Shown: positions 19,463 through 29,291, counted from the stretch's first letter. The stretch: 64,000 nucleotides of DNA from Deltaproteobacteria bacterium (GCA_019309545.1 JAFDGA010000023.1:1320-65319); one strand, 5' to 3'. Notes: a model not told the origin generated them from the sequence alone. A program made the numbers and translations.

Positions 19463-22156
19463 TTAGCCTTTTTGAATCTGCACGGCGCAGACCTTGTATT
19501 CCGGGATTTTGGCCACGGGGTCGAAGGCGGCGATGGTGAGTTTGTTGGCCGCGGCCTCGCCATAGTGGAAGGGCACGAAGATGGTGCCGGGAATGGCCTT
19601 GGCCGAGATCTGGGCTTTGGCGGTGATTTCGCCGCGGCGGGAGCGCACCTTGACTCGGTCGCCCTCGCCAATGCCATAGCGGGCGGCATCTTCCGCAGCC
19701 AGCTCCACGAAACACTCCGGGGCCTTTTCCACCAGGCCCGCGGCCCGCCGGCTCATGGTGCCGGTATGATACTGGTACAGCACCCGGCCGGTGGTCAGGG
19801 TCAAAGGATATTCCGCATCAGGCAGCTCGGCCGGTTCGCGATGCTCAATGGCAAAGAACTGGCCGAGGCCGCGGGCGAATTTATCCTTATGGAGATATTT
19901 GGTGCCGGGATGATCGGTGGTGGGGCAGGGCCATTGCAGGCCGCCCTCGGTTTCCAGGCGGGCATAGGTGATGCCGGCATAGGAGGGGGTCACCTGGCGC
20001 AGCTCGTTAAAGATGGCCTCGGCATTGGCATAGTCCATGTCATACCCCAGCCGCCGGGACAGGTCGCAGATAATCTGCCAATCCGGACGCGACTGGCCCA
20101 CCAGGGGAACCGCCCGGCGGATCAGGGCCACCCGGCGCTCGGTATTGCTAAAAGTGCCCTCTTTTTCGGCAAACGAGGCCGCCGGCAACACCACATCGGC
20201 CAACTGCGCGGTCTCGGTCAGAAAGATGTCCTGCACCACCAGAAAATCCAGTTTCTTTAAAGCCGCGACCGCATGGTCGGAGTCGGGATCGGAAATTACC
20301 GGGTTCTCCCCCATGATATACAGGGCTTTGAGCTTGCCTTCGGGTATGGCGGGCAGCATGTCGGTCATGGTCATCCCCACATAATCCGGCAGGCCGGTAA
20401 CCCCCCAAGCATCCTCCATCTTCTTCCGGTTGGCCGGGTCGGTGACCGCCTGGTAGCCGGAGAAGACATTGGGCAGGCCGCCCATGTCGCAGGCCCCCTG
20501 GACATTGTTCTGGCCCCGCAGCGGATTGACGCCGCCGCCTTCAATACCGACATTGCCGCAGAGCATGGCCAGATTGGCCAGGGATTTGACGTTGTCGGTG
20601 CCGACGGTGTGCTGGGTGATGCCCATGGTATAGACGATGGCTGCGGCCGGGGCAGTGGCATAAAGCCGCGCTACCCGGCGCAACTGGTCGGCGGGGACGC
20701 CGCTGATCTGTTCGACATATTCCGGGGTGTATTTGGCCACCGTGGCTTGCAGGGCCTCAAAGCCCTCGGTGCGGGCGGCAATGTAGTCCTTGGCGTGGAG
20801 ATTTTCTTGAATGATGATATTCATCAGGCCATTGATCACCGCGATATCGGTGCCGGGGCGGTGGCGTACCCAGATATTGGCATGCCGTACCAAGTCGATG
20901 CGCCGCGGATCAATGACGATCAAGGTTTTATGCTTCAGGCGGGCTGCCCGTTTGATGCGGGCGGCGATCACCGGATGATTCTCTGTGGTGTTGGAGCCGA
21001 TCACCAGGATACAGTCGGTGTCTTCCAGCTCAGCAATGGAGTTGGTCATGGCTCCGGAGCCAAAGGCGGCGGCCAGACCGGCCACCGTGGAGCTGTGTCA
21101 GAGACGGGCGCAGTGATCGACGTGGTTGGTGCCGATCACCGCCCGCATGAATTTCTGAAACAGGTAGTTTTCTTCGTTGGTGACCCGGGCCGAACACCAG
21201 CCGCCGATCTTGTCGGCCCCGTCTTTTTCCTTGATTTTCTTGAGGCGTTGGGCCACCCGGTCCAGGGCCTCATCCCAACTGGCCTCCCGGAAGCTACCGT
21301 TCTCTTTGATCAACGGCGTGGTGAGGCGGTCGGGATGGTGCACAAAGCCCCAGCCAAAGCGGCCTTTGACGCACAGCCGGCCCTCGTTGGGAACCTCATC
21401 AGCGCCAGTCACCTTGACTATGCGACCGTCCTTGACCTGCAGGTCGATCTGGCAGCCTACCCCGCAATAAGGGCAGGTGGACCGGACCTTAGTACGCTCC
21501 CAGGGCCGCCCCTGAAAGCGGGCCGCCTTGTCCAGCAAGGCCCCTACCGGACAGGCCTGCACGCACTCCCCGCAAAAGACGCAATCGGCGTCGATATAAG
21601 GATAATCTCCGCGGGCGACGATCTTGTTGTGCGAGCCGCGGTAGCCGATGTCGATGGCCAGATTGACCTGGCGCTCGCAACAGGCCCGCACGCAACGGCC
21701 GCACATAACGCACTTGGAAAAATCCCGCACGATCATACTATTATTGTCTTCATAATAATACGCCGTGTCGGGGGGGTTGGCAAAGCTGGGGGTCGGCACC
21801 TGGTAGCGATAGGCCAAGGCCTGCAATTCGCATTCCCCATTGGCTTCACAGATCAGGCAGTTATGATTGCCGGAGGCCAGCAGCAGTTCGATGACCATCT
21901 TGCGGGCCGCGACCACCCGTTCCGACTCGGTCTGAACCACCATGTTGGCGGCGGCCTGGGTGGAGCACGCCGGCAGCAGGGTGCGGGCCCCCTCGACTTC
22001 GACTACGCAGACCCGGCAGGAGCCGGTGGGGGTGGTGCCTTTCAGGTAACACAGGGTGGGGATGTCAATTCCCGCCCCCCGGGCCGCCTCCAGGATGGTC
22101 TGGCCCGGCGTGAATTCTACGGTTTGTCCATTTATACTTAGAGTTGAATTGGCCAT
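19463..22156 (-). CDS. fdhA: formate dehydrogenase alpha subunit, selenocysteine-containing (NuoG-like Fe-S N-terminus plus molybdopterin domain)
   Basis: ORFs 21098-22156 and 19463-21085 are in the same frame and joined by TGA at 21098-21100. The junction reads [28 protein letters not shown], the conserved Sec/Cys active-site context of FDH-H-type enzymes. N-terminus carries 2Fe-2S and 4Fe-4S motifs. Confidence 0.9.
21068..21086 (-). promoter_or_regulatory. SECIS hairpin for Sec insertion in fdhA
   Basis: On the mRNA strand, GGUGGCC-GGUCU-GGCCGCC forms a 7-bp stem with a GGUCU loop. It starts 11 nt after the UGA, which is the spacing and loop type of bacterial fdh SECIS elements. Confidence 0.6.
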
Positions 22157-23631: not shown

Positions 23632-24879
23632 TCAGAGCCGCTGGTCGCGGCTGGCGTCGTAAAATATATTGTCTGGCTCCTGCTGGCCCAGCACCCGGCG
23701 GTAGGCCTCCACCATAAAGCCGGCGATGATCTGGTTGGTCATGATTACCGCGGGATCGGGACGGTACTGGCAAGAGGCCCGGGGGTGCGAGTGGGGGGCC
23801 GTCCGGCGCTGGCGCACGATCTCCGCCAACCCCAGCAGTTCCGCCGGGGTCCGGGTATGGCGGGCCGGATCATAAACCACCACCTGACCGGCGGCGACAT
23901 CGCTGCCGCCGCTGATCAGGATTTTCTGGTGAGCTTTACATAATTCACTCAGAATGATCCTAGTCTCAAAATTATCGACCCCGTCAAAAATTATCTGGTA
24001 CGGGGAGATATCGGTTTCCTGGTCTAAGGCGACCGGGAGGAACCGGCTATTGAGGCCGAACAACCGGTTCAGGCGGGCCGACAGAGCTTGGGCCTTGTTT
24101 TTCCCCAGGCCCTGGGAGAGAAACACCTGGCGGTTTAGATTGGTCATCTCCACCACATCCGCATCCATAAAGGTGAGGTTCGTCGCGCCCAGCAAGGCCA
24201 GCCCCAAGCCGATAAAATTGCCTAAAGCCCCGGCCCCCACCACACAGAGGGGGGGATGGCAGCGCGGGAGCGGCAGTGGCGGTCGCGCATAGGCAATCAC
24301 CTCTGGCGATACCGGCTGCCCCATGAGGATATTCTTGGTCTCTTCCAAGGCCAGCCCGGCAATGATGATGTTTAGCACGTCGTCATCAAAAGGCGCGGCG
24401 GGCAGGTTGCGGGGGGACAGCAACTGCTCCAGTTCCTGCCATTCCCGCCCCTTCAGATAAGTAAAGACCTTGAAGCCTTGCTGATCAGCCTGCTGGTAAG
24501 GGAAGCCGCGGATCACCGGCCGGGGGGCGCGGCCGTCTTGAGCCAGCAATAATTTGTTGGCCAACCCGTACTGACTGAGATCCACCAGCACCTGGCAACC
24601 AGTAAATAGGTCCTCCAGCACCGGGTGGGTGAAGTATCCGGGCAGATGGACCAGGCGCAGGTCAGGATTGACTTGGCGCCCAATGTCGATCAGGTGCGGC
24701 TCCAGACGGGGGGCGATGACTACTAGTTGATTCAGCCCCAGGGCCGCGGCCGACATCACGTACAGCGAGGCCAGGCGATCATCGTCGCCGACCACGCCGA
24801 TCCGGGCCGCCGCAAGTACCGCTTGATTCCAACCCGGGATGCGCAGTTGTCGATCCAGTCTTACCGACGTCGGCCGCAT
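23632..24879 (-). CDS. E1-like (ThiF/MoeB/UBA family) adenylyltransferase with tandem degenerate + active adenylation domains
   Basis: 415 aa. Residues ~205-415 carry the intact motifs VVGAGALGNFIGLGL, TNLNRQ and DNFETR. Residues ~8-200 repeat the E1 N-terminal pattern (RQLRIPGWNQAVLAAARIGVVG), but the glycine loop is replaced by GDDDRLAS. Its ATG overlaps the JAB stop (TAATG). Confidence 0.8.
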   Translation of the reverse strand: MRPTSVRLDRQLRIPGWNQAVLAAARIGVVGDDDRLASLYVMSAAALGLNQLVVIAPRLEPHLIDIGRQVNPDLRLVHLPGYFTHPVLEDLFTGCQVLVDLSQYGLANKLLLAQDGRAPRPVIRGFPYQQADQQGFKVFTYLKGREWQELEQLLSPRNLPAAPFDDDVLNIIIAGLALEETKNILMGQPVSPEVIAYARPPLPLPRCHPPLCVVGAGALGNFIGLGLALLGATNLTFMDADVVEMTNLNRQVFLSQGLGKNKAQALSARLNRLFGLNSRFLPVALDQETDISPYQIIFDGVDNFETRIILSELCKAHQKILISGGSDVAAGQVVVYDPARHTRTPAELLGLAEIVRQRRTAPHSHPRASCQYRPDPAVIMTNQIIAGFMVEAYRRVLGQQEPDNIFYDASRDQRL

Positions 24880-25676
24880 TACAATATTTCCAGCTTTTCC
24901 AGCTTATAGGTGATGGGATTGATTTTTTCCTTGACTTCCCCGGCCAAAGCGGCCAGTTCAACCGGCGTCAGGGACTGGCCATTGTCCACCAGGACGATCT
25001 CGGCGTTTTGGTGGCTCACCGTGGTCTGGCCCGAGAGGATGGCCCGCCGCTTGTAATAGATCTGCTGCTGATGCCAGCCCTCGTCGCCGATGACGATGCC
25101 GTAACTGAACCCACCGTAAATGGTTTCCAGGATCCGGGCTTGGGCCACCGGGACATCAGTAATCAGCGAGACGCTGCCTTGGGCTAAATCGGGCTCGGCG
25201 AACCGGTCGGCCACCAACAGGGTCAAGTCCTTGATCAAAATTTCTTTCTTGGCGATGGGCTTCTTAGAGAGGGCGGTGACATAATCGAGCACAGTGAGGT
25301 GATTCTGCTCATCAATGGCGGAGAAAGCATGGAACTCGAGTTCGCCATGCGAGTGAATCCAGCCGTTGATAAAGCGGTCGGCGGCCAGGGTTTCCTGAAA
25401 AGCGGCGATTTTCTCCGGGTCGATGCTGGTGTACTCCAAGACATTCTGTTCATTTTTGGGCAAGCCGATATCGATAATGAGCTCCGGGTTATCCCGCCGG
25501 GCCAGGGTATAGCCGTACCATTCATAACTGCTGTGGTGGATGGCTCCCACCAATTCGTTGATCTTAAAGGCCTTGGAGCGGGCGTAAGAGGTCATAGGAA
25601 TTTCCTGGGGCAAGGAGTCCAGGATGATCTCTTGCGCCACTGGGCGTTGCAGTTGTGACAGGCTTTTAAATCTCAA
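24879..25676 (-). CDS. JAB/JAMM (MPN+) metallopeptidase
   Basis: 265 aa. WIHSHGELEFHAFSAID (H-x-H-x8-S-x2-D) with a Glu (SSYEWYG) about 56 residues upstream fits the JAMM zinc site. The TTG start overlaps the AAA+ stop (TTGA); an alternative ATG is at 25595. The C-terminal ~125 aa are unassigned. Confidence 0.7.
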   Translation of the reverse strand: MRFKSLSQLQRPVAQEIILDSLPQEIPMTSYARSKAFKINELVGAIHHSSYEWYGYTLARRDNPELIIDIGLPKNEQNVLEYTSIDPEKIAAFQETLAADRFINGWIHSHGELEFHAFSAIDEQNHLTVLDYVTALSKKPIAKKEILIKDLTLLVADRFAEPDLAQGSVSLITDVPVAQARILETIYGGFSYGIVIGDEGWHQQQIYYKRRAILSGQTTVSHQNAEIVLVDNGQSLTPVELAALAGEVKEKINPITYKLEKLEIL

Positions 25677-26776
25677 TTTAATTTCATCCTGACATATCGC
25701 TCATCCACTACCAGCTTGCCAGTATGGCTGCCGGGCAGCCGGAACATATCCTCAAATAACACCCGGTGGATGATACTGATCAGGCCGCGAGCCCCGGTGC
25801 GTTCTTGTTTGGCCCGCTGGGCGATCACCTTCAAGGCATCGTCGACAAAGGTCAGCTCGATGCCCCAGGCCTTGAGGTCGTTGATATAGGCGCGCAGCGG
25901 ACTGTCTTCGCTTCTAATCATGATTTCCTGGAGTTCTTGCGTGGTTAATAAGTCATAGACAATTCTCACCGGAAAGCGGCCCATGAGTTGTCGTTCCATG
26001 CCAAATACTACCAGGTCCTCGGTCAGGAGATGATCCTGCCAATTGCCGCCGAAGCCATGGCGCTCCATCCGTTTTTCGACAATGGCGTCGAGCTTCTCGT
26101 AAACCCCGCCGGCAATGAAAAGCACGTGTTTGGTGGACAGGGTGATTCTTTCCTTGCCCATCTCAATGGTATTTTCCACTCCCTCCACCAGCTTTAAGAG
26201 GCCTTTCTGAACGCCGCGGCCCGATACATCCCGGTAGGCCACGTTCTCAGTGGCGATTTTGTCAACCTCATCGAGATAGACTATGCCCATCTGGGCCAAA
26301 TGAGGGTTGCCGGCGGCGGCGACCAGTAGGTCGGCCAGGATATCGCTGGTGTTCTGTCCGACATAGCCGGTTTCACTGAATTTGGTTAAATCTTCGACCA
26401 CAAAGGGAACCCCCACCAGTCCCGAGGCGGTTTCGCAGGTGTAAGTTTTGCCGCAGCCGGTGGGCCCGATCATTAACAGGTTGGCCTTGGGAGTTCGGGT
26501 GTGGCGCAGGGCGGCGCCGATGTCACCGCCGTCTTCGGCCAACATCTCTTTGAGGGCGTTGCCTAAGCGTTTATAGTGGAAGGCAATGGCGGTGGCGATA
26601 ATCTTCTTGCCTTTTTCCTGGCCGATCACAAACCGATCTAAATGCGCCTTAAAATCAGCCGGGGTTTTATCAAATTCGACGACCTGTTGAATGGCCTCGA
26701 GAGTTTGAGCTTCTCGTTGTTGCTCAATTTTCTCTTTGATCCGCCGCCGGCTTTCCTCTGATAATCTATCAAACAT
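25673..26776 (-). CDS. ClpX-family AAA+ unfoldase paralogue lacking the N-terminal zinc-binding domain
   Basis: 367 aa, collinear with the ClpX AAA+ module. Motifs: FVIGQEKGKK, Walker A GPTGCGKT, pore-1 loop TGYVGQN, Walker B IVYLDEVDK, DVSGRGVQKGLLKLVEG, sensor region TGARGL. There is no C4 zinc finger and no RKH loop. The IGF-loop position is shortened to RHGFGGN. Confidence 0.85.
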   Translation of the reverse strand: MFDRLSEESRRRIKEKIEQQREAQTLEAIQQVVEFDKTPADFKAHLDRFVIGQEKGKKIIATAIAFHYKRLGNALKEMLAEDGGDIGAALRHTRTPKANLLMIGPTGCGKTYTCETASGLVGVPFVVEDLTKFSETGYVGQNTSDILADLLVAAAGNPHLAQMGIVYLDEVDKIATENVAYRDVSGRGVQKGLLKLVEGVENTIEMGKERITLSTKHVLFIAGGVYEKLDAIVEKRMERHGFGGNWQDHLLTEDLVVFGMERQLMGRFPVRIVYDLLTTQELQEIMIRSEDSPLRAYINDLKAWGIELTFVDDALKVIAQRAKQERTGARGLISIIHRVLFEDMFRLPGSHTGKLVVDERYVRMKLN

Positions 26777-26846
26777 AGTTCACCAAATATTGTTTTAGCT
26801 TTGTGTTAAATATTCGTTTATCCGGGATGACCGGCCTTTTCTGGCG

Positions 26847-27278
26847 TTAGGCTCGGCCTGGTCCCCGGAGTCGCTTCCGCTGCCACAGGGTGAGAAAATG
26901 GAAGCGGCCCAGTAGTTCCGGGTTAAGAGCCGGATTTAATTTAAACAGCGGTCCACACAGCAGAATCTCGGCTGGGGAGTGCACGAACTGCAGGTAAGGA
27001 TTGTTGACTGCCGCGATAATTGCCATGGTCACTTGATATTCCGGGGCAGTACCCAGAGCAAACAGCGGAGGTTGGAAAAAAGCTTTGTTTGGCACCGGCT
27101 CGTGTGCAAAGATTTCCACCGGCCACTGCTCTAAGGGCTGATCGAGGAGGGCGACAAAGCTGTTCCCCAAGCCATAGGCCTTTACTAAAGTGCATATTCT
27201 GGTAAAAAGGCTGCATTGAAAAGGCGGTTTGTTTTTTCTCTGCGCCCTTTCCCCTCTTATTTGCTGCAATAGGGCCAT
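26847..27278 (-). CDS. hypothetical protein (operon-embedded, 143 aa)
   Basis: Its ATG lies 1 nt after the stop of the upstream 384-aa ORF (TGAtATG). I recognise no motif. Coding is inferred from the tight coupling within the cassette. Confidence 0.5.
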   Translation of the reverse strand: MALLQQIRGERAQRKNKPPFQCSLFTRICTLVKAYGLGNSFVALLDQPLEQWPVEIFAHEPVPNKAFFQPPLFALGTAPEYQVTMAIIAAVNNPYLQFVHSPAEILLCGPLFKLNPALNPELLGRFHFLTLWQRKRLRGPGRA

Positions 27279-27279
27279 A

Positions 27280-28434
27280 TCAGGTGTATCTGTTTTTTAC
27301 CTCGACCTGCCCGGAGACAATTTTGGGATGATCGGCGGAAATCCGGTAATCATCGAAATCGACGGTCCGAACATGCTGAGTTATGCGATCCAGACTGTGA
27401 TAACCGTTGCGGCGGCGACTGTTGTAACCATAATACAGGGCGTTAATGCCTTCCTCCAGGGCCTGGATGACATTTTCGGCAGTAAAGTTTTTGGTTGTCT
27501 CGTAATCGCCGGTGCAGATTTTCTGCCAGGAAGCGTAGCCGAACAGGAAGGGGTGTTTATATCTTTCCAGCACCAGGGGCTGTAGACCGGCCAGAGTGGA
27601 AACCGCCACCCGACAGTCGGGGAATAGATAAAAGCGACCATAGTAATCTTTGAGGACATATTCGCCGATGTGTTTATAGATGATGTATTCGTTGCTGAAG
27701 CCGGTTTTAAAAAACCCGAAGCCATCCACCTCTAATGAACCTTGCCGGGCTAGGGCGAGGAGAATTGGGAGATAAGTACTTTGGGTCCGGACCAGCTGTT
27801 GTCGTTCCGCCAGCGCCTGTCGGAGACGATCTCTTTCCTGATCAATTATATATTTTTCCAAAGCCAGGCGAAACCACTCGTACAACTGTGGGGCCAACAT
27901 CAAACCTTCTAAAGGTTCGGGTCTGGTTGCCGCAGTGGCTTCAAGCCTTGTCACTAAATTTTGCAGTAATTCTAAATCCAGCAGCTTATCTACCTTTTGG
28001 TCATCGATTTTGGAGATTTCCAGCTTCTCCCGCAGCAAATCCATTATTTCTGTTTCGGTAAGTGGTATTCTCTTTAAACCGGCTTTTCTTCTCAAAAAGT
28101 GGGGCATTACCTCGAAAATTATGGTTCTGACCTGACTATCGATAGGTAGATCATTGATCTCCGGATCATGGCCAAATTTCTGTAAACCGGCCCGCCGCAG
28201 TTGCTGATAGGAGGTGGGGTGGATTTTTTCGTAGTTTTCCACCAGGGAGGCCAAACTCAAGGTTTTGACAAACAGCTTTCCCGCCCTGGCAATTAGGGGG
28301 CTACCAGGGGGTGGCGTGAACTGACCATCCGAGTTCTGAACTTCGCAAGCTATTTCCGGATCAAACAGTAGTGGTAGATAGATAAAGCCGCCTTCTATGA
28401 CAATCTCAAGATTTGATTCCAGCAACTGTTGCAT
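27280..28434 (-). CDS. hypothetical protein with candidate E2-like (UBC-fold-like) C-terminal region
   Basis: 384 aa. Residues ~235-345 read as strand-rich segments (FYLFPDCRVAVS, PLVLERY), then HPF (294-296), then Cys307 (QKICTG; codon 27514-27516) 10 residues later, then a helix (TAENVIQALEEGINALYYG). This is the order seen in E2 catalytic cores. It is pattern-level evidence only. Confidence 0.45.
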   Translation of the reverse strand: MQQLLESNLEIVIEGGFIYLPLLFDPEIACEVQNSDGQFTPPPGSPLIARAGKLFVKTLSLASLVENYEKIHPTSYQQLRRAGLQKFGHDPEINDLPIDSQVRTIIFEVMPHFLRRKAGLKRIPLTETEIMDLLREKLEISKIDDQKVDKLLDLELLQNLVTRLEATAATRPEPLEGLMLAPQLYEWFRLALEKYIIDQERDRLRQALAERQQLVRTQSTYLPILLALARQGSLEVDGFGFFKTGFSNEYIIYKHIGEYVLKDYYGRFYLFPDCRVAVSTLAGLQPLVLERYKHPFLFGYASWQKICTGDYETTKNFTAENVIQALEEGINALYYGYNSRRRNGYHSLDRITQHVRTVDFDDYRISADHPKIVSGQVEVKNRYT

Positions 28435-28478
28435 TACTGACTGCTCCAGTAATGGCAGACAATAATCATAGTTTAAGG

Positions 28479-29291
28479 CTAGTTTAAAGTTAACCTCATC
28501 ATATAGAAACTATCATTATTTTCATGATCGAGGGAAAGCACCTTCATAATTTGAAAGCCCAGGCGCTCATAGAGTTTTACTGCGCCGATCTTAACCAGCT
28601 CAACGTCTAATTCTACATATTTAACCTTTTTTTGCTTGAAGTTAGCGATACAGTTTTCAATTAACGCCGTCGCGATGCCCTTCCCTCGATGCTCGGGATG
28701 CACTGCGATCCTCAAGATCACCGCTCGGTGGCCTAGTTCACAGATACAGCCGATCAGGTAGCCTAAAATTTCTGTTGTTTCAAATATATAAAATAAGTGG
28801 TTCAGGGCCTGGCGAAAATTATGGTATTCCCAGAAGTCCAGGAAGGATAGCCGATCGATTTCCAGGACTTTATCCAGATCGCTCTCCGTAGCCATGCGGA
28901 TGTAATTACTGTAATTGCGATAAGGTCTACCTCCTTCTTGAGGTTTGATGGCCCGCACCGGCACGTAGAGATATTGTTCTCCGACTTCAGTTTCCTGCAC
29001 TTCGGCATAATCTCTAGCCTTGCCGTCAACCTCTCGACCTCTGCAGAGCAACTTGCCACCGGCCAACTGTCTTTTAATGTCTTCAAGGACTTGTTGTTCT
29101 TCGATGCTCCAATTGGTTTTACTTAAGGTTTCTTCACACAGCTTCCGGAGCGGTTTACCCTCGTAACTGCCGGGCTCGAAAATCTCGATTAACCCTTCTC
29201 CGGCCTGTCCCGGCATGATTTCGATCACCAATGATTGCGGCTGTGCCCGTTCAGCCGGTTGCTCAGCTTTCTTTGATTCTATTTCGGTCAT
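28479..29291 (-). CDS. fusion protein: N-terminal ubiquitin-like (beta-grasp-like) module ending in Gly-Gly + C-terminal RimI-like GNAT acetyltransferase
   Basis: 270 aa. Residues ~135-270 are a clear GNAT (ILRIAVHPEHRGKGIATALIE, VELDVELVKIGAVKLYERLGF). Residues ~20-121 show a Ub-like pattern (LVIEIMPG..GLIEIFEPG, long helix, KLLCRGREVDGKARDYAEVQ, YLYVPVRAIKPQEGG) with GG at residues 120-121 (28929-28934). AAGAGG RBS. Confidence 0.6.
   Translation of the reverse strand: MTEIESKKAEQPAERAQPQSLVIEIMPGQAGEGLIEIFEPGSYEGKPLRKLCEETLSKTNWSIEEQQVLEDIKRQLAGGKLLCRGREVDGKARDYAEVQETEVGEQYLYVPVRAIKPQEGGRPYRNYSNYIRMATESDLDKVLEIDRLSFLDFWEYHNFRQALNHLFYIFETTEILGYLIGCICELGHRAVILRIAVHPEHRGKGIATALIENCIANFKQKKVKYVELDVELVKIGAVKLYERLGFQIMKVLSLDHENNDSFYMMRLTLN

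Follow-up and report, generated by a model that had tools for sequence, protein, structure and literature searches.

The window, a stretch of 64,000 nucleotides from a Deltaproteobacteria bacterium (GCA_019309545.1, JAFDGA010000023.1:1320-65319), carries on its minus strand a cassette of six genes that encode a ubiquitin-like (Ubl) tag precursor (protein 1), two proteins named here p2 and p3, a ClpX-family AAA+ ATPase, a JAMM/JAB metallopeptidase (JAB) and a two-domain E1. That the six-gene set is a conserved unit, not a chance neighbourhood, came from the observation that all six families are found together in 34 of the 41 species-representative loci with enough flanking DNA (tblastn). We class the cassette with the ubiquitin-like systems, among which its architecture and several of its component families are new, and the operon is apparently undescribed so far. 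We consider it moderately probable that the cassette is a ubiquitin-like protein-tagging pathway with its own unfolding motor.

In the pathway that we propose, the tag would first be synthesised as a precursor, which in the window is joined to a RimI-like acetyltransferase. The JAMM peptidase would cut after the invariant KPQEGG and expose a C-terminal glycine, which the single-chain E1 would adenylate, probably carrying the tag as a thioester on Cys370. The p2 protein would probably take the tag on Cys307 like an E2 and hand it to target proteins. The ClpX-type hexamer, probably helped by p3, would engage the tagged proteins and unfold or extract them, and the JAMM peptidase would probably recycle the tag, as Rpn11 does on the proteasome. 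Gene content and order, domain identities, catalytic motifs, the GG with its variable tails, the predicted fold and the co-conservation were observed; that the tag is cut, moved by thioester transfer, attached to proteins and recognised by the ATPase, and what the pathway does in the cell, we infer from the roles of these families elsewhere. A bolder version of the proposal, a housekeeping tag-unfold-de-tag pathway of bacteria and archaea with a eukaryote-style two-domain E1, a new E2-like family and a ClpX-clade unfoldase and JAMM peptidase acting as a lid/base-like module without ClpP, is conceivable and rather doubtful. The genes and their main features are as follows.

28479-29291, minus strand: protein 1 (Ubl module and GNAT), first open reading frame (ORF) in transcription order
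28929-29291, minus strand: Ubl module, residues 1-121, with a disordered N-terminus of ~20 residues, a beta-grasp-like core and a KPQEGG end
28929-28946, minus strand: KPQEGG ending at residue 121, by translation
28479-28928, minus strand: short linker and RimI-like GNAT, residues 122-270 (Pfam/NCBIfam)
27280-28434, minus strand: p2, 384 aa, after a 44-nt spacer from protein 1
27283-27909, minus strand: conserved C-terminal domain of p2, residues ~176-384, by family alignment
27547-27561, minus strand: YKHPF of p2, part of the Y-x-HPF motif
27508-27525, minus strand: Q-K-I-C307-T-G of p2, part of the Q-x-IC motif
26847-27278, minus strand: p3, 143 aa, 1 nt after p2
25673-26776, minus strand: ClpX-family AAA+ ATPase, after a 70-nt spacer from p3
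26357-26368, minus strand: GYVG pore loop of the ATPase, by translation
24879-25676, minus strand: JAMM/JAB metallopeptidase, its start codon overlapping the ATPase stop (4-nt overlap)
25311-25355, minus strand: JAMM motif HSHGELEFHAFSAID, HSH-x8-S-x2-D by translation
23632-24879, minus strand: two-domain E1, 1-nt overlap with the JAB gene
24280-24879, minus strand: E1 N-terminal half, apparently a degenerate adenylation-like domain, with RLDRQ kept and the glycine loop changed to GVVGDDDR
23635-24279, minus strand: E1 C-terminal half, an active ThiF-type adenylation domain (Pfam ThiF)
24220-24237, minus strand: GAGALG of the E1, by translation
24127-24141, minus strand: NLNRQ of the E1, by translation
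23959-23976, minus strand: DNFETR of the E1, by translation
23764-23778, minus strand: ASCQY of the E1 with Cys370, invariant in a 32-sequence alignment

The first-pass annotation had proposed six minus-strand ORFs with these spacers, and an ORF listing reproduces their coordinates and gaps exactly. Every motif that it quoted for the E1, the JAMM protein, the AAA+ protein and protein 1 was confirmed by translating the codons.

Conservation across bacteria and archaea

Three metagenomic contexts and 80 species-representative genome loci were screened with the six window proteins by tblastn; related loci retrieved for comparison are labelled L001-L094, and L087-L094 are the contexts of distant p2 relatives. 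The usual gene order is Ubl-p2-p3-ATPase-JAB-E1, with the E1 relocated upstream of the Ubl gene in 27 of the 61 loci that have an E1 match. The metagenomic loci hold the same gene set. At least 693 p2 homologues, all annotated as hypothetical, are present in a 90%-clustered protein collection. The hosts are mainly Desulfobacterota (Desulfobacca, Desulfobacterales, Syntrophobacterales), with further occurrences in Methylomirabilota, Binatia, Acidobacteriota and Acidithiobacillales, and one cultured strain, Desulfoferrobacter suflitae DRH4 (L082), has the cassette. The first-pass annotation made co-conservation a test of its reading, and a seeded neighbourhood search finds the six genes kept across several bacterial phyla and homologous cassettes in archaea. 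Median identity to the window protein over the genome loci (tblastn) is 67% for the ATPase, 63% for the Ubl module, 57% for JAB, 56% for the E1, 44% for p2 and 42% for p3. The ATPase and the Ubl have the highest values, so that constraint is strongest on the tag and the motor.

The archaeal cassettes were found via distant p2 relatives on AT-rich contigs (L087-L094), which are assigned to archaea by their neighbouring genes only: TFIIB (L088), aIF5A, L37ae, prefoldin and aRF1 (L091), and EF-1alpha and S10 (L094). Hidden Markov models (HMMs) built from the bacterial families were used to search these contigs. The p2 model matches all the archaeal-type contigs searched, the Ubl model matches L094 (E 2e-24), L093 (4e-8) and L090 (3e-4), and the JAB model matches L094 (1e-42) and L090 (5e-30). 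In L094 the E1 model gives a full-length two-domain match (1e-110) and the p3 model a match at 1e-4; p3 homologues come after the E1 in archaeal cassettes. With a slash marking the end of the GG, archaeal tags read RPQEGG/YLC, KQEGG/AYLI, EKGG/AYYRLSA and EEGG/KGF. The ClpX-like ATPases in L087, L088, L090 and L093 score below the ClpX cut-off and are without IGF. L093 also has two tandem p2 paralogues and a JAB protein of 839 aa, and a Ser/Thr kinase lies near the cassette in L091 and L093. A p2 homologue at 48% identity (P0118) is deposited under a Nitrososphaera sp. metagenome-assembled genome (MAG), which may reflect either misbinning or one more archaeal case of the bacterial-type cassette. 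One Binatia MAG (M3-S_metawrap_bin.153) holds two separate whole cassettes (L011, L012).

Several other genes accompany the cassette. A GloB-like protein of the metallo-beta-lactamase (MBL) fold fused to tetratricopeptide (TPR) repeats travels with it (L001 4136-7336; L003 4031-7284), on the opposite strand in L021, L022, L037, L039, L040, L043, L063 and L070. Four small Cys-rich proteins (161, 127, 99 and 139 aa), with no Pfam or NCBIfam match, accompany MBL-TPR. With either strand counted, MBL-TPR occurs in 16 of the 41 loci that have enough flank, the 139-aa protein (s139) in 15 and the 161-aa protein (s161) in 13, and none of the five was found in the 64-kb window. In 17 of the 41 loci, a helical protein of 90-110 aa with a conserved (W/F)-G-x-P-H-G end is encoded beside the E1 or in the interval from p2 to p3 (L001 9261-9596, L017 5831-6100 and L043 7982-8251, among others); it has no family match and is missing in the window clade. 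A small protein ending in ...AKGG (L001 5207-5506) was considered as a second modifier and rejected, its GG end not being conserved and its homologues ending in ...KKEV.

In the window, the cassette is flanked upstream by a KdsD-like gene with SIS and CBS domains, GAF-GGDEF and Usp genes, and downstream by a convergent sCache_2 gene followed by a formate-dehydrogenase-like gene, which agrees with the kdsD and Cache-domain neighbours named in the first-pass annotation. Promoter and terminator scans of the cassette gave counts not above those of shuffled sequence. The formate-dehydrogenase-alpha-like molybdopterin enzyme (19463-22156, minus strand; 2Fe-2S, 4Fe-4S, Molybdopterin and Molydop_binding domains) appears as two ORFs, split by a single in-frame TGA at ~21095-21097 in the context HCARL-TGA-HSSTVAGL. 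This TGA is very probably a selenocysteine codon, not the mark of a pseudogene.

The tag precursor

The Ubl module has 611 homologues at 63-71% identity, most of them stand-alone proteins of 121-140 aa, and its ~100 residues are 57-85% identical across phyla. The sequence (K/R)PQEGG is found in 119 of the 120 best homologues and is followed by non-conserved tails of 0-76 residues, three proteins ending exactly at GG. Likewise, all 79 complete Ubl ORFs of the genome loci have (K/R)PQEGG, and four end exactly at GG. A GG that never varies, followed by dispensable extensions and encoded beside an E1 and a JAMM peptidase, is what one classically expects of a processed ubiquitin-like precursor. The first-pass annotation took an E1, a JAB and a GG-terminated module together as the hallmark of a tagging system or of a sulfur carrier, and the GG with its variable tails and the invariant JAMM, E1 and Cys set speak for tagging.

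To ask whether residues ~20-121 have the beta-grasp fold that the first-pass annotation expected, we modelled the Ubl module with AlphaFold2 on a 41-sequence alignment. The model is confident (predicted local distance difference test score, pLDDT, 83; predicted template modelling score, pTM, 0.74), with residues 1-15 disordered (pLDDT <50) and residues 21-115 at pLDDT ~90. Its core is ordered beta(21-27)-beta(34-38)-alpha-alpha-beta-(short helix)-beta-beta(106-115). A Foldseek search of the Protein Data Bank (PDB) places yeast SUMO first (probability 0.77, E 0.078); the other beta-grasp matches, each weak, include Atg8/LGG-2, Atg12, T. brucei SUMO, the Ubl domains of USP7 and UAF1, and Ufm1, and also the PI3K RBD, SSL7 and EccD. 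The expected fold is thus matched by the model, at the level of weak individual similarities. The disordered N-terminus of the tag could act as a start site for unfolding, as in Pup.

In the window, the tag is followed by a GNAT domain (residues 130-250; Pfam Acetyltransf_1, E 7e-18) that scores 61 bits against TIGR01575 (rimI), under the cut-off of 86.4 bits. Presumably, the GNAT is released by cleavage after G121. The fusion after GG is kept in the window clade (L005-L009). The same GNAT subfamily is found as a stand-alone gene between JAB and the E1 in three Methylomirabilota-type loci (L019 5589-6068, L047 13870-14505, L081 13943-14401), which suggests that the GNAT is a recurrent accessory and not an accident of fusion. 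An association of ThiS-family Ubl and GNAT genes is listed for Halobacteria by Makarova & Koonin 2010. A second kind of fusion partner is a 57-aa Zn-ribbon-like module (CPxC…C-x-H), which is fused after GG or adjoins the tag in Methylomirabilota- and Binatia-type loci (L001 7792-7965; L003 7339-7926).

Activation, transfer and unfolding

The E1 has 415 aa and no inserted CYS domain. Its C-terminal half matches Pfam ThiF over residues 212-402 (E 1e-27), and G215, G217, G220, N247-Q251, K262, D302 and Cys370 are invariant in 32 sequences. Cys370 lies in a short crossover-loop segment, as in MoeB/ThiF-type E1s. In the N-terminal half (residues 1-200), which has no Pfam match, R7, R10 and Q11 of RLDRQ are invariant and the NLNRQ segment is deleted. 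The two halves align in register over 160 columns with weak statistics (hhalign P 0.046, probability 1.2%), so that the protein looks like a pseudo-dimer of an inactive and an active adenylation domain, as in BilD and eukaryotic E1s. Among PDB entries, Uba1, Uba4, Cap2 and MoeB are about equidistant from it.

In JAB, the residues E52, H108, S109, H110, S119 and D122 are invariant in a 32-sequence alignment, and the protein has an extra C-terminal domain. The match of the window protein to Pfam Prok-JAB is weak (E 0.004); 15 of the 32 family members match this model, the best at E 5e-4 and all under the gathering score, and a PDB profile search gave no useful match. The end of the ATPase gene and the start of the JAB gene are at most 2 nt apart in 55 of 56 bacterial loci (tblastn-aligned gap of 2 nt in 48 and -1 nt in 7), and such gaps fit an ATPase stop that overlaps the JAB start, as in the window. 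JAB therefore appears to be translationally coupled to the ATPase. A JAMM enzyme coupled to an AAA+ translocase recalls Rpn11-Rpt of the 26S proteasome; this likeness is an analogy only, as the ATPase of the cassette belongs to the ClpX/HslU clade, not to Rpt/PAN, and has no known peptidase chamber.

The ATPase is an AAA_2/ClpX protein whose translation shows the Walker A motif GPTGCGKT, the Walker B motif VYLDEVDK and GYVG. It matches NF003745 at E 8e-80 with 268.6 bits against a cut-off of 359 bits, and TIGR00382 with 235.5 bits against 370.75, and its best PDB matches are ClpX chains (E ~1e-58). Like ClpX, it has a collinear AAA+ module with Walker A and B, a GYVG pore-1 loop, a sensor-2 GARGL and a small C-terminal domain; unlike ClpX, it is without the C4 zinc-binding domain, the RKH loop and the IGF loop, and is encoded with an E1 and JAB, not with ClpP. 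The alignment begins at ClpX residue 67, from which we conclude that the zinc-binding domain is lacking, and has deletions of 6 residues at the RKH loop and 14 residues at the IGF loop; the N-terminal 37 residues form a Cys-free helix-like segment. We compared the protein with 120 close homologues, nearly all of 367 aa. GYVG and GARGL are each found in 120 of these 121 sequences and the Walker motifs are conserved, while IGF is found in none of the 120 homologues and the residues left at its position vary (GFGG, GLEG, GFQG). As judged from these sequences, the ATPase is ClpX-like and cannot dock ClpP or be a component of ClpXP. Automated annotation calls its homologues "ClpX" or "AAA family ATPase".

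The p3 protein is present in 38 of the 41 loci with enough flank. From its HSPAEILLC motif it was suspected to be an E2, and this was rejected, since Cys109 is C, S or A in homologues. It has no match in Pfam, NCBIfam or PADLOC and no useful PDB profile match. We suggest that p3 is a probable non-catalytic adaptor or partner, because no invariant nucleophile is seen in the alignment of homologues and L015 and L078 have lost both p3 and the ATPase. Residues 10-58 give weak family-profile matches to ribosomal protein L20 (E 0.0026, 0.019), probably due to a shared basic helical composition.

The candidate for the transfer step is p2. In a 37-sequence alignment, 33 columns are invariant; they cluster in the last 150 residues and include D273, C274, Y292-K-H-P295 (with H294 and P295), Q304, I306, C307 and a cluster of Y335/Y337/R340/R342/G344/H346. 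A profile search of 1.84 billion representatives found 201 relatives, some of which have 430-540 aa and match through the C-terminal domain only. In an alignment of 97 diverse members, and in archaeal relatives too, what persists is Y-x-HPF, then Q-x-I-C-(L/M)-G 10-13 residues later, then a helix, a pattern that resembles the UBC signature HPN…G-x-I-C-L. As Cys274 is replaced by Ala or Leu in many distant members and Cys307 persists, Cys307 is likely the nucleophile. Along the chain, the AlphaFold2 model (pLDDT 79) has a long helix, a beta-meander, the HP loop, the Cys and then another helix, an order shared with E2s, and E2s (including UbcH5, Rad6, UBE2G2 and a Leishmania E2) make up seven of the top 50 Foldseek matches of the full-length model, none of them significant. 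No Pfam, NCBIfam, PADLOC or PDB sequence match was obtained for p2, and neither UQ_con nor Prok-E2 came up when 37 members were scanned with Pfam at E <= 10. Together, motifs and model are suggestive of an E2-like conjugating enzyme, which is our best guess, not a finding.

Competing interpretations and significance

By overall logic, the cassette is closest to Pup-Mpa and SAMP/proteasome, with different chemistry or organisation. In Actinobacteria, the Pup system consists of Pup, PafA, Dop, Mpa/ARC and 20S, and ligation goes via a glutamate side chain by the glutamine-synthetase-like PafA/Dop; Pup is intrinsically disordered and ends in GGQ or GGE, and Mpa is a classical-clade AAA. As in the pathway proposed here, one gene set supplies a small tag with a disordered end, an enzyme that ligates it, one that removes it and a dedicated AAA+ unfoldase; unlike the cassette, it has no E1 or JAMM, Pup is not beta-grasp, Mpa is not ClpX-like and a proteasome partner is present. 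PafA/Dop domains were not found in Pfam/NCBIfam scans of the six cassette proteins, whose tag is predicted to be folded and has its GG ahead of a tail. The archaeal SAMP/UbaA/HvJAMM1 system resembles the cassette in its beta-grasp tag ending in GG, its E1 of the ThiF type and its JAMM protease, and SAMP-tagged proteins are handled by AAA+ machines (proteasome, PAN, Cdc48). Its components are, however, encoded at separate places in the genome and also serve as sulfur carriers, UbaA has only one adenylation domain, no E2-like partner is present, and the ATPases are neither encoded with the tag nor ClpX-like.

Several observations weigh against a tagging pathway with its own motor. The Foldseek matches of the Ubl model are individually non-significant, the best against the PDB at E 0.078 and none reaching 0.001, so the fold assignment is consistent, not proven. 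Foldseek of the full-length p2 model against PDB and BFVD gave no significant match, and hhalign of p2 against an alignment of eight eukaryotic E2 sequences gave a probability of 0.3%, with the close family and the 97-sequence alignment alike. The register of this non-significant alignment sets YxFPxCRV on YPFKPPKV, HPF on HPN and ICL on ICL. A Cys at the crossover-loop position also occurs in the sulfur-carrier E1s ThiF and MoeB, so that Cys370 is no proof of thioester-based conjugation. No protease partner was seen: tblastn with ClpP and HslV queries gave no match in the window or the fetched loci, and no clpP lies within 10 kb of the cassette in the fetched loci. The ATPase is missing from the bacterial cassettes L015, L078 and L080 and the archaeal L091 and L094; in L015 and L078, p3 is missing along with it and JAB comes directly after p2. 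The tag pathway can thus exist without the ATPase, which would be a frequent, not obligatory, member of an older Ubl-p2-JAB-E1-p3 core. Lastly, the spread is sporadic, with p2 relatives in 112 of 185,579 species genomes in a pattern-limited scan, a distribution that an accessory or defence role would explain as well.

Among described systems, the Bil operons come nearest; they encode BilA (Ubl), BilB (E2), BilC (JAB) and BilD (E1, IAD-AAD-CYS) and no E3 (PMC11601596). It is therefore natural to ask if the cassette serves antiviral defence in the manner of Bil or type II CBASS, with the Ubl put on a phage protein and the ClpX-like ATPase as the dismantling effector, a reading that we consider unlikely. 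The parts do run parallel, as Bil also has a Ubl with a C-terminal glycine and a JAB, while its separate E2-type protein and its E1 of inactive and active adenylation domains would have candidate counterparts in p2 and the E1 of the cassette, and the ThiF domain is matched by the E1-E2 and BilD models of PADLOC and by the NCBIfam 6A-MBL cap2_3 model. Linkage to an MBL-fold protein is frequent and calls to mind the MBL part that the 6A-MBL name implies, and the two copies in one Binatia MAG and the occurrence in both domains of life in so few species genomes fit horizontal spread. Yet neither an AAA+ ATPase nor p3 is part of Bil; the E1 of the cassette is without the inserted mobile CYS domain and matches the PADLOC BilD model weakly (E 0.0016), p2 is not detectably related to known E2 families and no BilB-type E2 was detectable. 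The tag is highly conserved across phyla, whereas defence Ubls are described as structurally diverse (PMC11601596). PADLOC matched only the generic E1 domain and gave nothing for p2, p3 or JAB. The genomic context is not defence-like either: neighbours in related loci are metabolic or housekeeping genes, the GAF-GGDEF and KdsD upstream flank is common to the window and L005 (p2 64% identical), no CapH/CapP, BrxR, nuclease, TIR or similar was seen among the neighbours in metagenomic loci, and p2 relatives were not found in PLSDB plasmids, INPHARED phages or the 2.9 million viral contigs of IMG/VR. Other defence modules differ further. Cap2/Cap3 of type II CBASS share the E1/E2/JAB enzymology, with no free Ubl and the CD-NTase itself conjugated. 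Bub (6E/DUF6527; 2024 Bub/Ubl preprints) also has E1/E2/JAB-type enzymology and uses an oxyester route with a DUF6527 serine protease and no catalytic cysteines, whereas Cys370 of the E1 and Cys307 of p2 are conserved here. We think that a role in proteostasis or regulation is more likely than one in immunity.

It is also conceivable, and in our view quite unlikely, that the ATPase, p2 and p3 form a client-specific remodelling or assembly machine, for which the Ubl is an activated cofactor or adaptor that is not broadly conjugated and may be joined instead to a single partner, to a lipid or to a small molecule. Candidate clients would be MBL-TPR and the four Cys-rich proteins, which are linked in ~40% of the loci with enough flank; p2 is without demonstrable E2 homology, and the partners fused to the tag after GG differ (GNAT, Zn-ribbon-like module). 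Against this, the window and its clade have no MBL-TPR or Cys-rich genes within 64 kb and yet keep all six core genes, the invariant E1 site, JAMM site and GG terminus would be costly to keep for a mere adaptor, and so strong a conservation of the tag suggests that its interaction partners are many. A sulfur carrier of the CysO/Mec+ or QbsE/QbsD type, in which the GG, exposed by JAB and adenylated by the E1, would be turned into a thiocarboxylate that gives its sulfur to a cofactor, amino acid or natural product, seems to us very improbable. An E1, a JAB and a GG-terminated small protein are the signature of those systems too (Iyer et al. 2006, PMC1779556). In CysO and Qbs, JAB-type processing exposes a C-terminal glycine for an E1, as is predicted for the cassette. 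The nearest NCBIfam matches of the E1 by score are ThiF and MoeB, and its Cys stands at their Cys position. These scores are 70 bits (TIGR02356, cut-off 275) and 68 bits (NF004281, cut-off 266), those against all MoeB/ThiF/UbaA equivalogs are far under cut-off, and no rhodanese domain was found in the E1 by Pfam/NCBIfam scans. Rhodanese, MoaE, ThiG, CysM, cysteine desulfurase and biosynthetic genes were not seen among the genes catalogued for the cassette and related loci, where no direct search for such sulfur-transfer partners was made. Moreover, a sulfur carrier would leave the ClpX-like ATPase, p2 and p3 unexplained, and the tag, with ~100 residues, an extra helix and a disordered N-terminus, is unlike the compact ThiS/MoaD. 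The simple sulfur-transfer pathway that the first-pass annotation had held up as an alternative is thus not indicated.

The first-pass annotation had also supposed that the described bacterial systems have no dedicated ClpX-family unfoldase. Full-text literature searches, which did not reach subscription-only papers, turned up no E1/JAB/Ubl cassette with a ClpX-type ATPase, and none is found in Iyer et al. 2006 (PMC1779556), Makarova & Koonin 2010 or the 2023-2024 Corbett-lab preprints.

If the cassette is indeed a tagging pathway with its own unfolding motor, it would show, for the first time outside eukaryotes, E1-type tagging tied directly to an AAA+ unfoldase and to a JAMM enzyme that recycles the tag; in the bolder version it would be a third prokaryotic system of tag-dependent unfolding besides Pup and SAMP. 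To our knowledge, the bacterial E1/JAB/Ubl systems described so far either carry sulfur or form sparse antiphage modules, none of them reported to have an unfoldase of its own, and Pup, of unrelated chemistry, is the one bacterial tag coupled to an unfoldase. The cassette is chromosomal and conserved, has a ClpP-independent ClpX-type motor and is present in Bacteria and Archaea, and it defines at least three protein families that are without any annotation (p2, p3 and the helical 90-110-aa protein). The fusion precursors of its tag are reminiscent of fusions of ubiquitin with ribosomal proteins. It raises the questions of how tag recognition by unfoldases can evolve, what a ClpX relative does without ClpP, and whether a ubiquitin-like proteostasis pathway operates in anaerobic Desulfobacterota, Methylomirabilota and some archaea. 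Its interest rests on E1-type tagging coupled to an unfoldase in both prokaryotic domains, which, if the bolder version is true, would offer a natural model for the first coupling of ubiquitin-type tagging to AAA+ machines.

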